In this document: positions 1-16,080 of the stretch, in pieces
Numbering within the stretch: position 1 is the first letter of the stretch
Layout of the letters: the number at the start of each line of letters is the position of its first letter
From: Flaccisagitta enflata
Lineage: Eukaryota
Assembly: GCA_965153355.1 (NCBI GenBank)
Contig: OZ231126.1
Span: 48,050,001-48,114,000, forward strand
Direction of reading: 5' to 3'
Length of the DNA stretch: 64,000 nucleotides
The notes under the pieces: model-generated
The model's input: the letters and a program-made list of their open reading frames with translations, nothing else
The model's database searches: none
Told to the model about the DNA's origin: nothing
Position numbers and translations under genes: made by a program

Positions 1-668
1 TGAGGAGGCATCTCTTCTCTAAATGTGTTTACAATGATACGAAAGCCAGATCGCAATTCAACAAACAGAAGATGAGCTATTTCGGATTCTGACGTGTCAA
101 CGAAGAGGATTAAGGTTCTTCCAGGTCCGGTTGAGAGAATGTTGTCATCAGCAGAGACAGATCCTAGAACGTCTGCGGCGGAGATAGGTCCACCAGGCCC
201 ACCAGGTCCACCAGGTCCAAAAGGTCCTCCAGAGGCGGAGCCAGCTCCTTTAACGTCAGAGGCGGAGTCGGGTTCTTGAACGTCAGAGGCGAAGCCGTGT
301 CCTTGAACGTCAGAGGCGGAGCCGGAGCCGGAGCCGAAGCTGGAGCTAGAGGCAGAGGCAGAGCCAGAGCCAGAGCCAGAGCCTCTGAAAGAGCCGAAAG
401 CCTCCAAAAGCTTTTGAAAGAGATCTTCGGGTTCAACAGATGGAATCTCATCAGGAATGTCATCTTGTGATTTATTCTCTTCGATGTTTTCTTGTGGTTC
501 TCCACTTTCATCTATATCGTTTTCTCGTGGTTTATCCATATCGATGCCTTCATCAACATCAATTAGAGAGTGTGTCGGACACTCTGAGAAAAGTTTGTTG
601 TAAAAGTTGGACAAAGTTTTTGCAATGTGAAGAATTGGCAACCAAAGAAGGGAAACAATAGTTGCCAT
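1..668 (-). CDS. Accessory protein downstream of protease; acidic, GS/ASDV/GPG-repeat-rich; open at window edge
   Basis: ATG at 668 (MATIVSLLWLPILHIAK...) reads without a stop to position 1 (>=222 aa). It is absent from the ORF track because no stop lies in the window. Confidence 0.6.
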   Translation of the reverse strand, partial: MATIVSLLWLPILHIAKTLSNFYNKLFSECPTHSLIDVDEGIDMDKPRENDIDESGEPQENIEENKSQDDIPDEIPSVEPEDLFQKLLEAFGSFRGSGSGSGSASASSSSFGSGSGSASDVQGHGFASDVQEPDSASDVKGAGSASGGPFGPGGPGGPGGPISAADVLGSVSADDNILSTGPGRTLILFVDTSESEIAHLLFVELRSGFRIIVNTFREEMPP

Positions 669-686
669 AACTCAGATTTCACTACA

Positions 687-1234
687 TTAAGACAGAAACC
701 CAAATTCACATAATTTATAAGCACGGCGAAGGATGTATTTTTCTCGTTCCAATAATTCTTTAAAAGCTGTTTTAATTTAACAAAATGCGGGATGTTGTGT
801 ACTGTAAAAAATCGCAAATTAAAAATAAAAAAATAACCGCAGCCTAAATTTTTTCGAGATTGTGTAACCAGATTAAAATGCGACAATGAAAGATGACGAG
901 TGCTACAAAATGTGTCAATAGTATTTCTTATATCCTTTTTATCTTTATAAACACTTGCTAAACTATCGATAAGTAAACAATGTCTATTTTGGTCCCGTAG
1001 GTCTAAGGCCAGAAGGAGCCAATGACCAGTGGTCTGATAGATTTCCTGTGAATGTGAAGAATTGAGCACTATGGCCATTTTCCTCTTTTTTGAAAAGATA
1101 TTATGTTTTAATGTTAAAAGTTTGTCATAAGGAATGATAAGGGCGCCATTACCAATAAATTTCAACGCTTTAGGAATCTTTTTTAAATATCTGATTAAGT
1201 CTTTGTCCGTGGTTATGAGTTCTTTCGATGACAT
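687..1234 (-). CDS. Adenain-like cysteine (maturation) protease, copy A
   Basis: Start MSSKELIT at 1234. Motifs TGHWLLL, LIDSL and TQSRKNLGCG give the His/Asp/Gln/Cys set; aligns with 42698-43228. Probable frameshift in an A-run near 740 (alternative frame NEKYILRRAYKLCEFGFLS*), so the end is approximate. Confidence 0.8.
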
Positions 1235-12612: not shown

Positions 12613-13598
12613 TCAACCAAGTAAAGGTATTTTAGAGGCAATAAGCGTCCTACCCTTGTATGCGGTTGTCCGACGTAAGTCATTCGTACGTCTCCTGTAT
12701 TCTGATAGTGTTGCCGGAGTGGGACGGAGTCCAAACTCGAGTTTGACCAACGAATTGACCTGATCGGACGCTCTGAAGGCTGGTTTTCTTTCAGTGTTCA
12801 ACTGCTTTATTTCTTCATTCCCATGTTCCATCTCCTGAACGCCGAAGTTTCTCTGTTGTTGCAAACTATCTAAGGGAACATGTAAAAGGTTTGCGCATTC
12901 GAATTCTTGTGTTCGATCTTTCCAGCATTAGTTTGTTGAGCTCCCGCAAAAAACTAGGTGGTCCAATTAGATCCCCAATCAGAAATTCATCCGCCTCATA
13001 TGAGTTAAGAGTATGCCAGAGAGGTAGCCTGTCCGTGTCTGCTATGGTTTGGTCTTCTTTTATTTTCCAAACAAAGCGCGCGTCGTATATTTTCAGCTTG
13101 CTGTGGAATGTGCCACTAGTGTCAGGCCAGAGATTCTTTTTCACTGCCGTGAACGCATACCGCGCGATACTTAAACATTGAGAGGGATTGGGTAATGGAT
13201 TTTGAATGTGATGTTCGCATCAAGCAATTTGATCTAGCTCATTTTGGAACCGTTTCAATTCGTGGAGAAATTTGTTGCATGCAAGTTGTGTGGCTTTGCG
13301 TGAGCGGTCTAAGCCAGTTGACATTTGTTCAGCACCGCTTGGATACCAAACTCCGCTTTCAAGTGCTGTAAACCATTGTTGGCTGATGTTGTCTACTGTT
13401 ACGCGGAGCGTCTGTTCTTTACGACTTACGTCTAAAGCGGCTTTATGCAAGAGCTGATTAGATTTCCCAACATAGAATGAAATCATCATTATCCAACGAT
13501 GGTAATACCCAGCAGTGTCCTTTGTTTAAAGATTTTTTCTACTACTAACAAAATAGTTAATGTCTGCATTTTGGGGGCATGATAAAGAATACGACATA
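12613..13598 (-). pseudogene. Decayed ORF of unknown function at the distal end of copy A
   Basis: ORF-track pieces 13526-13711, 13220-13489 and 12866-13144 are in one frame separated by single stops, with complex non-repetitive sequence. Confidence 0.45.
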
Positions 13599-16080
13599 TT
13601 TCCAGCAGCATTTTGTTGTTCTGCTTGATGTTGTTTTTGCAAGCAGCACGAGTTGTTAAATCCTCTTTTAGTCACCTTACTTTTTTTAAAAAAATCCCCC
13701 CCCCCCCACAAGCAAAGTTATGACTTTGTTTCAGCTGATACTCAATCATTCAGCCAAGTCAATCAATCAATCATTCAACCAGCCGGTCATTCAATCAGTC
13801 ATTCAATCATTTGTTCAGTCAGTCATTCAGTCATTCAGCCAAGTCAATCAATCAATCAATCATTCAACCAACCGGTCATTCAGTCACTTGTTCAATCATT
13901 CATTCATTGATTCAATTAAGCAGTCAGTCACCTCGCTGCAACTCGCGTTGCATTGGAAGACTTTAATTCCTGCTGATGTTAATTGTTTAGATTTATCGTT
14001 CATGTCATCTCCGAGCGCTGGACACACTCGTTCCAGTGCCGGAGAAGCGCCGGAATAATTAGATACCGATCTTTTGTACATTCCGTTGGGCGCGATGGGC
14101 GTAAACGCGTACTCAAGAGGAACGCTTTTAATGATATCCTCCGAAATATGGCCTGACTGGCTGTGGTTACTACTTTCATGGTATTGTTGTGAGAGACTCT
14201 CAACAACACCCGTGATACCGCCTGCAATATCGTGCGACAAACACAAACACAAACACACACACACACACACTGGCAGACAGAGCCTCTTACTAAGTCGCGG
14301 GTCCAAGAAAAGACGAAGAGAAATGGATTGACGTGATTGTGGTAAAAAATGTTTTTTTGAAAATCATCCATAACTTTTTTTAGAGGGGCAAATTTGCATA
14401 ATTTTTTTTGCTTAGTTACTCGTTATAACATATATAATGACTAGAAAAAATCAAATTTGAATTCTGAAAATGTTCAATTTTGACCTCTCATGAATGGCAT
14501 ACGTTTCACAAGCTTAGATCATGTCGTAAAACAATATGAGAGTGTGTGTGTGTGTGTGTGTGTATGTGTGTGTGTGTGTGTGTGTGTGTCTCTCTCTCTC
14601 TCTCTCTCACTGCGCACTAAAGGGGGAATTCCTGGTCACTAACTTGCCTCGCGGAAAAATTCCTTGGGATCCTTGAATTCCTTGGGGATCGCAAGGGCAC
14701 CGCGAGGGGACCGCGGCATTGGGCCACTTTGCTGGCTTTTTTCTTTTTGATAAGTCATACATGGGAAGCAATGATTCCGCTGAAGGCTTATTGGGTTGTT
14801 CTGACCTGATTATCAACTATAATCTGCTTTTTGAAAAATTTGGGAGGACCGCAAGGAAGGGGGGGACCGCGAGGAACTCAAGGATTGGTAAGTGAATATG
14901 AGGAATCTGGGTACCATGGATTGGGAGGAAGGGGAATGTGATTGCAAAAAACAATAACAACAATAACAACATCAACAATAAAATAATAATAACAACAGTA
15001 CCCCAATGAAAATAACAACAATAACAACAACAACAACAGCAGCAATAACCCACAGCAACAACAGGAAGCGTGAACAGAGACCGGAACGCAGGGATTATGT
15101 ATAAAGGGGAATCATGATTGCAGATAACAACAACAATAATAACAACAACAACAACAGGCAATATTAACAACGACATCATGATGAATGACAGCAGCCAGAA
15201 TTACACAAATGATGGCCCTTACACTGTGCTTCTGCTCCTCAATCTTTCAGCGTCACTCTCTTCTTTGCTATCAATTCTACATTATGTAGATATTCTGTAG
15301 ATTTTGTCCTTACCGTGAATTTTACACTTAAGCTGAAAGGAAAATGGTATGGTGAGGAAGTAAGTGATGGTTTTAATTGAAAGAAAGAATGTGTCATTTG
15401 TTACCTGCCCAGTGTCATTGAGCATGTGCATGTGTGTGGTTGTGTGTGTGTGTGTGTGTGTGTGTGTGTGTGTGTGTGTGTGTGATTGGGCGAATGAGAA
15501 TGTTACTTTATATATAAGATTTTCCAGCTTACGTATGAGTATATGACAGCAAATTTTTAGTCCCGTGCACGCGACTCTACACCCCGCTTTGTGCATTGGT
15601 TGGTCGGTCGGTCGGTCGGTCGGTCAGTCACACTGTACGTTTTTTATCAATTTTATTTCTTTAGGTCTTTCGCGACTTATAGGTGTTGGCCTTGTTGAAG
15701 AAAAATTAAGTGTTTCAAAATAGTTTTTGCATCATTATCTGGACAATATTGTTGCTGTAATGCTTTTAATAGACAGATTGTTGCTAAGGATACTTGATGT
15801 ACATACACTTTTATCATGTTCTGACCTCAAAAGTAATGTCAACTATTCAATTCACATGGAAAAAGGCAAGAAAATCAAGGTTTTTAACAAAATCTTTCTT
15901 TCAATTTTTTGTTATTTCCTGCTGTTGAAATTCTAAAACTCTGAAATGCAAAGAAACTTTGTATATTTAAAAAAATAGTTCTCTCCGCAATTGATTTTGG
16001 AAGAGAACTATGTTTTTTGTCCAATCTTAATGCAATGAAATATTGAATATGATTTATTTAAATAATCATTTGGGTATAAT

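Follow-up and report, generated by a model that had tools for sequence, protein, structure and literature searches.

Two collinear, deeply diverged virus-like gene modules with a penton-like capsid gene and a retroviral-type integrase in a 64-kb stretch of Flaccisagitta enflata DNA

A 64,000-nucleotide stretch of contig OZ231126.1 of the Flaccisagitta enflata assembly GCA_965153355.1 (positions 48,050,001 to 48,114,000, hereafter the window, whose own numbering is used throughout) contains two collinear gene modules, copy A and copy B. We propose that A and B are very probably independently integrated, same-orientation endogenous copies of one virus-like family from the realm of the polintons/Mavericks and adintoviruses. 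Such a family would unite adenovirus-type virion genes with a retrovirus-type integrase, and its common order on the minus strand would be a low-complexity protein, an rve-type DDE integrase, a penton with a helical insert, a lysine-rich small protein, an interval of about 2 kb at the position of a hexon gene, and a protease. The initial annotation of the window had described a second, highly diverged copy with the same gene order; that observation is real, although somewhat overstated, and is confirmed here in part.

All stop-to-stop frames of positions 1-16000 were translated and compared by tblastn with the remainder of the window, in both directions, and the penton-to-protease interval of A was also compared with that of B in a search restricted to the syntenic intervals. 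Every match between A and B is collinear and runs minus strand to minus strand, at 27-44% protein identity, as follows (aa, amino acids).

About 563-8950, minus strand: copy A, collinear protein matches to B
About 42698-51240, minus strand: copy B, collinear protein matches to A
A566-1324 with B42731-43207, both minus strand: protease match, 30% over 167 aa, E 1e-15
A1471-1611 with B43465-43620, both minus strand: match, 35% over 52 aa, E 0.009 (window) and 4e-4 (syntenic intervals)
A2621-2863 with B44445-44615, both minus strand: match, 31-44%, E 5e-4 to 8e-5
A4088-4723, 5990-6166 and 6121-6318 with B46376-47665, both minus strand: penton match, 27-36%, E 3e-7 to 1e-4
A6904-7635 with B47734-48315, both minus strand: match of the C-terminal part of the integrase, 28.5% over 200 aa, E 7e-13
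A8532-8690 with B49372-49647, both minus strand: match of the N-terminal part of the integrase, 33%, E 2e-5
A8760-8948 with residues 446-515 of the 521-codon frame of B (49678-51240), both minus strand: low-complexity protein match, 29%, E 3e-5

The three penton pieces of A fall on one 536-codon frame of B (46109-47719). The comparison supports six matching segments, four robust and two weak, equivalent to five to six genes, so that of the seven genes in the same order and strand that had been claimed, the order and strand stand but the number does not. Nor does copy A reach across positions 1-13700 as first described: homology stops near 8950, or at 9740 if the N-terminal part of the low-complexity gene is included, neither A9213-9740 nor A10123-10890 is significantly similar to the 521-aa and 348-aa open reading frames (ORFs) of B, and no B counterpart was found for anything in A between 9.8 and 13.7 kb. 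At the DNA level, blastn (word size 11; positions 1-16000 against 16001-64000) gave eight matches of 41-78 nt, all in low-complexity or repeat sequence and none in genes, which bears out the earlier statement that A and B share no obvious DNA-level identity. Two measures of their distance had been suggested: pairwise protein identity has the values given above, and the ratio of nonsynonymous to synonymous substitution rates (dN/dS) is not meaningful, since an amino-acid identity of about 30% goes with saturation of the synonymous sites. When all 162 retrieved proteins were searched against the window, the penton family matched at 3653-6282 and 46112-47716 only, and therefore the window holds no third copy.

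The viral nature of the modules is supported by the penton-like fold of a 527-aa protein, which is intact in copy B.

46109-47692, minus strand: copy B, penton-like (vertex, single jelly-roll) capsid protein, 527 aa, intact, from profile search, AlphaFold2 model and Foldseek

A word-indexed search with this protein returned 11 relatives, none of them named, and a profile search with its family among 1.84 billion representatives returned 157 at E<=1e-3 and 83 at E<=1e-30. The relatives are mostly 510-545 aa long, and those of the B lineage comprise 56 member sequences in seven clusters at a minimum of 73% identity. Pfam searches with 62 family members gave no family beyond four single-member chance matches, sequence and profile searches of the PDB with the penton found nothing, and PHROGs and NCBIfam gave nothing useful except a hint of IS3 for the integrase (see below). 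The ESM Atlas offered only sub-threshold leads for the penton, with scores of 0.88 at best: hypothetical clusters of viral origin and one Sputnik V18/19 cluster. The family appears to be unnamed. An AlphaFold2 model built on 62 sequences (predicted local distance difference test, pLDDT, 89.8; predicted template-modelling score, pTM, 0.87) has N- and C-terminal blocks of beta-strands with long helices between them, at residues of about 123-332 (about 210 residues), an unusual architecture for a penton. Foldseek searches of BFVD with this model gave 19 matches at E<=1e-3, of which six are named as penton or minor capsid proteins (ranks 3, 6, 7, 11, 15 and 18): adomavirus LO5 three times, the mavirus minor capsid protein, the MELD virus penton and the Qinghai Lake virophage minor capsid protein. 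Ranks 1 and 2 are proteins of the polinton-like virus TsV-S1 and ranks 10 and 16 adintovirus proteins; among the others are a DUF5901 protein and an entry labelled as a pithovirus major capsid protein, and the rest are uncharacterised giant-virus proteins or nameless. The best TM-scores were those of the adomavirus LO5 pentons, and LO5 is described as the penton of adomaviruses, present in purified virions (10.1101/341131). On this model we interpret the 527-aa protein as a vertex protein of the single jelly-roll type that carries a large insert of helices.

A maximum likelihood tree of the penton family (quick search, LG+G4) was calculated from 71 rows, namely 62 near-full-length aligned sequences, eight further relatives and one unaltered ORF fragment of copy A, with about 90 short or fragmentary matches left out. 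The A fragment pairs with a public relative, P0077 (79% over 199 columns, support 100), inside a clade of nine rows (support 100), and B pairs with another, P0001 (99% over 526 columns, support 100), inside a separate clade of 21 rows (support 99). Because A and B sit in different, strongly supported clades, each with a closer public relative, they represent separate lineages. The absence of DNA identity, the separate clades and the penton-like fold together uphold the earlier view of two distinct virus-like lineages as opposed to a recent tandem duplication.

The integrase genes give a second line of evidence on the history of the two copies.

47701-49614, minus strand: copy B, DDE integrase, four exons (49614-49375, 49156-48903, 48708-48614 and 48452-47701) and three GT-AG introns
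6901-8720, minus strand: copy A, integrase pseudogene, with exon 1 at about 8720-8490, exon 2 at 8339-8077, exon 3 at 7880-7775 and exon 4 at 7600-6901

Read from the DNA, the introns of B have GT...AG ends and pyrimidine tracts, and splicing in silico yields a 1341-nt frame of 446 aa with no internal stop. In this predicted protein the residues D96, D163 and E199 are spaced D-x66-D-x35-E, and D-x35-E is the spacing of retroviral-type integrases; on its sequence we assign the gene to the rve-type DD35E integrases. Exon 2, scanned as a single exon, gave weak matches to rve (Pfam, E 0.011) and to an IS3 transposase (NCBIfam, E 0.0067) that score below the curated cut-offs, and a PDB search with the C-terminal part of the integrase found no match. 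Exon 1 of B contains no cysteine and hence no H2C2 zinc finger. The third splice of B is cross-validated by copy A, which reads through the same sequence without interruption: the B junction FPKVS/IIERTIR (the slash marks the splice) aligns exactly with the uninterrupted TPKISIVERHIR of A. The A intron at 8076-7881 falls in the same Gly codon as intron 2 of B (SDRG/SEF in B, TDRG/SKF in A), offset by one nucleotide. Intron 3 of B (48453-48613) lies before IIERTIR and differs in position from an A-specific intron-like gap (7774-7601, GTAAGA...CAG), which follows ERHIR a few codons beyond the B intron 3 site. Because the codon of intron 2 is common to both copies and the position of the third intron differs, at least one integrase intron predates the split of the A and B lineages and one does not. 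A common intron codon in lineages that are about 30% identical is evidence for long-term nuclear expression with predicted splicing.

The two copies differ in their state of preservation, and the penton gene of copy A is in pieces.

3653-6282, minus strand: copy A, penton pseudogene, at least six pieces across three frames, premature stop at 4088, from tblastn with P0077
5148-5913, no strand assigned: insertion of 766 bp resembling a miniature inverted-repeat transposable element (MITE) in the copy A penton gene, 168-nt inverted arms, TA/TA flanks (5146-5147 and 5914-5915)

Copy A is dead, because it carries frameshifts, in-frame stops and the 766-bp insertion in its penton gene. The stops and frameshifts had been recorded in the initial annotation, and they break at least four genes. 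Compared with P0077 (477 aa), the A penton survives in pieces of 65-82% identity at 6282-6121, 6127-6002, 6008-5913, 5147-4932, 4935-4687 and 4660-4088, and homology to other relatives extends to 4013-3819 and 3700-3653. This homology breaks precisely between 5913 and 5147, matching the ends of the insertion, whose arms form an inverted repeat (5145-5312 and 5749-5916, 87%) that is perfect over its first 34 nt (CCCTGTCTTCAG...); with these arms and its TA/TA flanks the insertion is typical of a Tc1/mariner-type MITE. Exon 2 of the A integrase has in-frame TAA codons at 8269-8267 and 8164-8162, and in A a (GA/CT)n tract of about 170 nt now lies between integrase and penton, two genes that overlap one another in B. 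In copy B the 308-aa, 518-aa, penton and protease frames are open and the integrase is splice-intact. The earlier claim that B is free of stops thus holds for four ORFs, and for the integrase after removal of its three introns, but not for the hexon-position interval, and B is largely intact. With at least five open genes, B could still be expressed, judging from its reading frames.

The remaining genes of the module are as follows.

42698-43228, minus strand: copy B, candidate Ulp1/adenain-like cysteine protease, 176 aa, ATG at 43228, motifs GHW ... LNGL ... Q-x6-CG
563-1324, minus strand: copy A, Ulp1/adenain-like cysteine protease ORF, open, motifs GHW ... IDSL ... Q-x6-CG
49675-51231, minus strand: copy B, 518-aa ORF (521 codons stop to stop) with long poly-N and poly-E runs, its C-terminal 70 aa or so conserved with A
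8760-9740, minus strand: copy A, low-complexity gene remnant with a poly-Q/N run, in-frame stops at 9008-9006 and 8888-8886
45590-45886, minus strand: copy B, small ORF rich in lysine, following directly on the penton gene, from position and composition
About 3290-3548, minus strand: copy A, K-rich ORF downstream of the penton gene, similar to the K-rich ORF of B
51493-52419, minus strand: copy B, 308-aa ORF (348 aa stop to stop), open frame, no A counterpart

In the alignment of the A and B proteases the His of GHW, the Gln and the Cys-Gly are conserved in the order of clan CE, and the gene probably encodes an Ulp1/adenain-like protease, as far as sequence can tell. The 518-aa ORF of B has no family match in Pfam, PHROGs or NCBIfam. 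One of the stops in its A counterpart replaces a Gln that B has kept (LSLS*NQIF in A against LTLSQSHLY in B), and the N-terminal part of the A gene has no significant similarity to B. The K-rich ORFs end at an aligned stop (KDNFL* in A, KDSFI* in B), and their overall similarity is not statistically significant. The frame stays open beyond this stop both in A (at about 3290) and in B (at about 45590). It is thus the end of a gene or, alternatively, a point of read-through or splicing, conserved in either case. From its position and composition, we propose the lysine-rich ORF of B as a possible core or DNA-binding protein. The 308-aa ORF of B has only two close homologues, P0012 (78%) and P0013 (76%); its 348-aa frame gave no lead in Pfam, the PDB or the ESM Atlas and has no similarity to A10123-10890. 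It may be a lineage-specific accessory gene, or it may lie outside the element.

Between the K-rich ORF and the protease, about 2 kb contain stops in all frames in both copies, and B carries a 52-nt direct repeat at two sites.

43447-45272, minus strand: copy B, hexon-position interval, stops in all three frames, 44445-44615 and 43447-43770 conserved with A
1471-2863, minus strand: copy A, decayed counterpart of the hexon-position interval, conserved at 2621-2863 and 1471-1882
45309-45360, minus strand: 52-nt direct repeat, first copy, TATA-like TTATAATA, upstream of a possible gene start near 45200
43410-43461, minus strand: 52-nt direct repeat, second copy, some 180 nt before the start codon of the protease (ATG, 43228)

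According to one source, the virion genes of adeno-, adinto- and adomaviruses follow the order penton, core, hexon, adenain (10.1101/341131), and we call the interval the hexon position because this order places a hexon there. The succession of penton, small basic protein, interval and protease mirrors that order, and the gene order thereby supports a viral reading of the modules. The ORFs at the hexon position had no match in Pfam or the PDB, no longer relatives were found for B43447-43770, and the small ORF at A1471-1882 is spread over three frames. Reassignment of a stop codon in B44400-43440 was considered and rejected, since the in-frame stops there are mixed (five TAA and six TGA). The two copies of the 52-nt repeat are 92% identical, and their exact 31-nt core occurs twice in the window and in none of 100 shuffles; the repeat may, as a speculation, be a repeated promoter. 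In copy A, poly-A/T tracts and words resembling AAAATTGA were weighed as promoter motifs too, and dropped for lying on the wrong strand and being of low complexity.

Several observations weigh against two independently integrated copies of a polinton/adintovirus-realm family in the form proposed above. The stops in every frame of the hexon-position interval of B count against B being intact. For the protease, the A ORF matches Pfam Peptidase_C48 just below the cut-off of 20.7 bits (19.5 bits, E 9.2e-4), B has no Pfam match, the protease searches of the PDB gave no match, and the third catalytic position holds the expected Asp in A but Asn in B. The Foldseek TM-scores of the penton model are modest (0.15-0.35 when normalised to the query, at most 0.64 when normalised to the target), and a shallow model built on 12 sequences (pLDDT 57.7) gave no match at E<=1e-3 in BFVD or the PDB. 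Pfam searches with 199 ORF queries from the copies and their flanks found no type-B DNA polymerase (PolB), FtsK/HerA ATPase or double jelly-roll capsid family, the six reading frames of the window contain no Walker-A motif (G-x2-[GSTA]-x-GK[ST]), and blastn-short found no terminal inverted repeats (TIRs) flanking A or B, only chance-level matches of 13-19 nt. Because no TIRs were found, the ends of the element are undefined and the copies may be partial. Spliced or decayed genes escape ORF scans, Pfam is weak on the capsid genes of polintons, and the downstream side of copy A leaves the window after 560 nt. The lack of replication and packaging genes is therefore apparent and not secured.

Under the interpretation that we favour, that of independent insertions by members of one virus-like family, a double-stranded DNA copy would be inserted by the DDE integrase, and the genes would be transcribed in the nucleus and spliced, which we propose because the integrase has GT-AG introns, one of which interrupts the same codon in A as in B. 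The pentameric vertices of a capsid would be built from the penton, the protease would process virion proteins, and A and B would stem from separate insertion events. A bolder version holds that the module of about 9 kb is the whole element. It would then belong to an integrating virus-like lineage without polymerase or ATPase and possibly without hexon, whose particle would consist mainly of the penton with its large helical, Cah-like insert. Once inserted by the integrase, the element would depend on host machinery for its copying and would be expressed through spliced nuclear transcripts. We consider this version unlikely.

The surrounding DNA looks like nuclear DNA of an animal. It ranges from 30 to 50% G+C and is rich in (CT)n, (CA)n and trinucleotide microsatellites, and we take the genome to be of animal type because an astacin gene and APE-type retrotransposons are present.

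18963-22618, plus strand: remnant 1 of a retrotransposon without long terminal repeats (non-LTR), RVT_1 reverse transcriptase at 21353-22618, E 2e-15
27191-29769, minus strand: non-LTR retrotransposon remnant 2, Exo_endo_phos endonuclease domain at 27191-29101
59973-60296 and 60885-61235, minus strand: astacin-like metalloprotease exons, Astacin (M12A) family matches

The endonuclease ORF of the second remnant has 636 codons and ends before any reverse transcriptase domain. The astacin-like pieces carry HEIGHTIG, a zinc site of the HExxH type. They look like exons of an ordinary host metalloprotease gene, which is interrupted by long (CT)n and (GA)n tracts. Two regions are self-reverse-complementary over some 500-600 nt (26328-26893, 68%; 38079-38560, 72%) and lie inside tandem-repeat arrays (37.4-38.6 kb), and a further tandem array with a 31-nt period occupies 57453-57815. 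Two dispersed repeat pairs lie between copies A and B, one inverted (30847-31002 and 35275-35430, 156 nt, 95.5%) and one direct (30399-30614 and 39302-39518, 217 nt, 86%), and are probably copies of short interspersed elements. The assembly has two gaps of 10 N each (55820-55829 and 59295-59304) in or beside long (CT)n tracts, and lengths near them are unreliable because of those tracts.

We weighed three other accounts of the two copies. That a single insertion was duplicated in place, segmentally or in tandem, and then diverged for a very long time would explain why A and B lie about 42 kb apart in the same orientation with the same gene order. Yet A is 79% identical to P0077 and B 99% identical to P0001 whereas A and B share about 27-36% in the penton, many lineages branch between them on the tree, no DNA identity is left in genes or flanks, one integrase intron differs in position, and an open B beside a heavily decayed A is hard to reconcile with equal age at one locus. 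Such an ancient event seems to us barely conceivable, and a recent or local duplication is rejected because each copy has closer kin elsewhere, no DNA identity is left and an intron position differs. A different origin, as a Ginger-type DNA transposon that moves by cut and paste, is not a virus, captured passenger genes and forms no particles, would account for the failure to detect PolB, ATPase or hexon. According to the source, Ginger1 has a single transposase, in which an N-terminal Gypsy-like integrase with YPYY, an H2C2 zinc finger and GPY/F is fused to Ulp1 or OTU, and it has TIRs of 40-270 bp and CCGG/CCGT target duplications (PMC2836005); its integrase is of rve type, and its genes, too, have GT-AG introns. 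In that description, however, the transposase itself contains the protease as its C-terminal domain and the elements measure 2.6-7 kb, whereas the module here is at least 8.5 kb long and encodes the protease in a gene of its own, about 4.4 kb downstream of the integrase and beyond the penton-fold gene. The B integrase lacks cysteine, and with it an H2C2 zinc finger, in exon 1, and TIRs were not found, so that we regard a Ginger-type origin as quite improbable.

The third account concerns the locus and leaves the nature of the copies aside. The initial annotation had hinted that A and B lie together because the locus traps transposons, as an insertion hotspot or a graveyard resembling a cluster of PIWI-interacting RNAs (piRNA), and not by chance. 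The window also holds two non-LTR remnants, the MITE in A, satellites and many dispersed repeats, and A, B and one of the retrotransposons are all on the minus strand. On the other side, the remaining retrotransposon (19-22.6 kb) is on the plus strand, host gene exons of astacin type follow at 59973-61235, and with 56 penton members in seven clusters for the B lineage the family may be abundant enough for two copies to be close by chance. We give a trapping locus some credence, on balance well short of an even case. Two independent insertions by members of one virus-like family, however they came to be close, are the account we prefer. For genome annotation this means that adjacent look-alike insertions can be independent arrivals from distant lineages.

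The closest frame for the modules is the polinton/Maverick-adintovirus group, whose hallmarks, according to one source, are PolB, an rve integrase, hexon, penton, adenain and a packaging ATPase (PMC8502044). The integrase and the penton are found here, and the protease probably is. Like polintons/Mavericks and adintoviruses, the modules have a predicted rve-type DD35E integrase and a penton-fold vertex protein with structural matches to adintovirus proteins; like them also, they have a putative papain-like cysteine protease beside the virion genes, an order that runs from penton to protease, and endogenous copies in an animal-like genome. Unlike them, no PolB, FtsK/HerA ATPase, recognisable hexon or TIRs were found in or around the copies, and the integrase here is split by introns. 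Most adintovirus pentons carry an adenovirus-like insert in the DE loop and some a helical 'Cah-like' insert, according to one source (PMC11071296), whereas the insert here is helical and about 210 residues long. The modules thus add to the pentons of the adenovirus-polinton realm a populous family (157 cluster representatives, no Pfam family) in which the jelly-roll is interrupted by a large helical domain.

In keyword searches of the literature, whose coverage is incomplete, no described element with this gene set was found, and other systems resemble the modules in part. With virophages and polinton-like viruses (mavirus, TsV-S1, Qinghai Lake virophage) they share the minor capsid or penton proteins that are the top structural matches, and with mavirus-type virophages, which have rve integrases according to the source (PMC8502044), the carriage of an integrase together with a cysteine protease. 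They differ from these viruses of protists in their animal-like host genome and in having no detectable sequence similarity to them, no detectable major capsid protein and no detectable ATPase. The pairing of an integrase with an Ulp1-type protease and the GT-AG introns in coding regions recall Ginger1 as far as it is described in the source above, from which the modules differ by a separate protease gene, the presence of a capsid gene, and the lack of a zinc finger in exon 1 and of detected TIRs.

Adomaviruses provide the remaining comparison. They are circular, have a replicase with a superfamily 3 (SF3) helicase and have no integrase, unlike the modules, which have an integrase and no detectable replicase. 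According to PMC11071296, adomaviruses of the xeno class have a 'Pentoncah' fusion proposed to have replaced the hexon, and encode small histone-like proteins. The penton described here resembles Pentoncah, by analogy, in joining a penton jelly-roll to a large alpha-helical part, with no homology of the helical part to Cah implied. Were polymerase, ATPase and hexon truly absent, the family would bear on gene loss, on the simplification of capsids and on the boundary between viruses and transposons. If the module is indeed the whole element, the family would have evolved for long as an intron-bearing resident of the nucleus, would be an integrating counterpart of the Pentoncah adomaviruses, and would offer a living example of the proposed route from a capsid of hexon plus penton to one of penton only.

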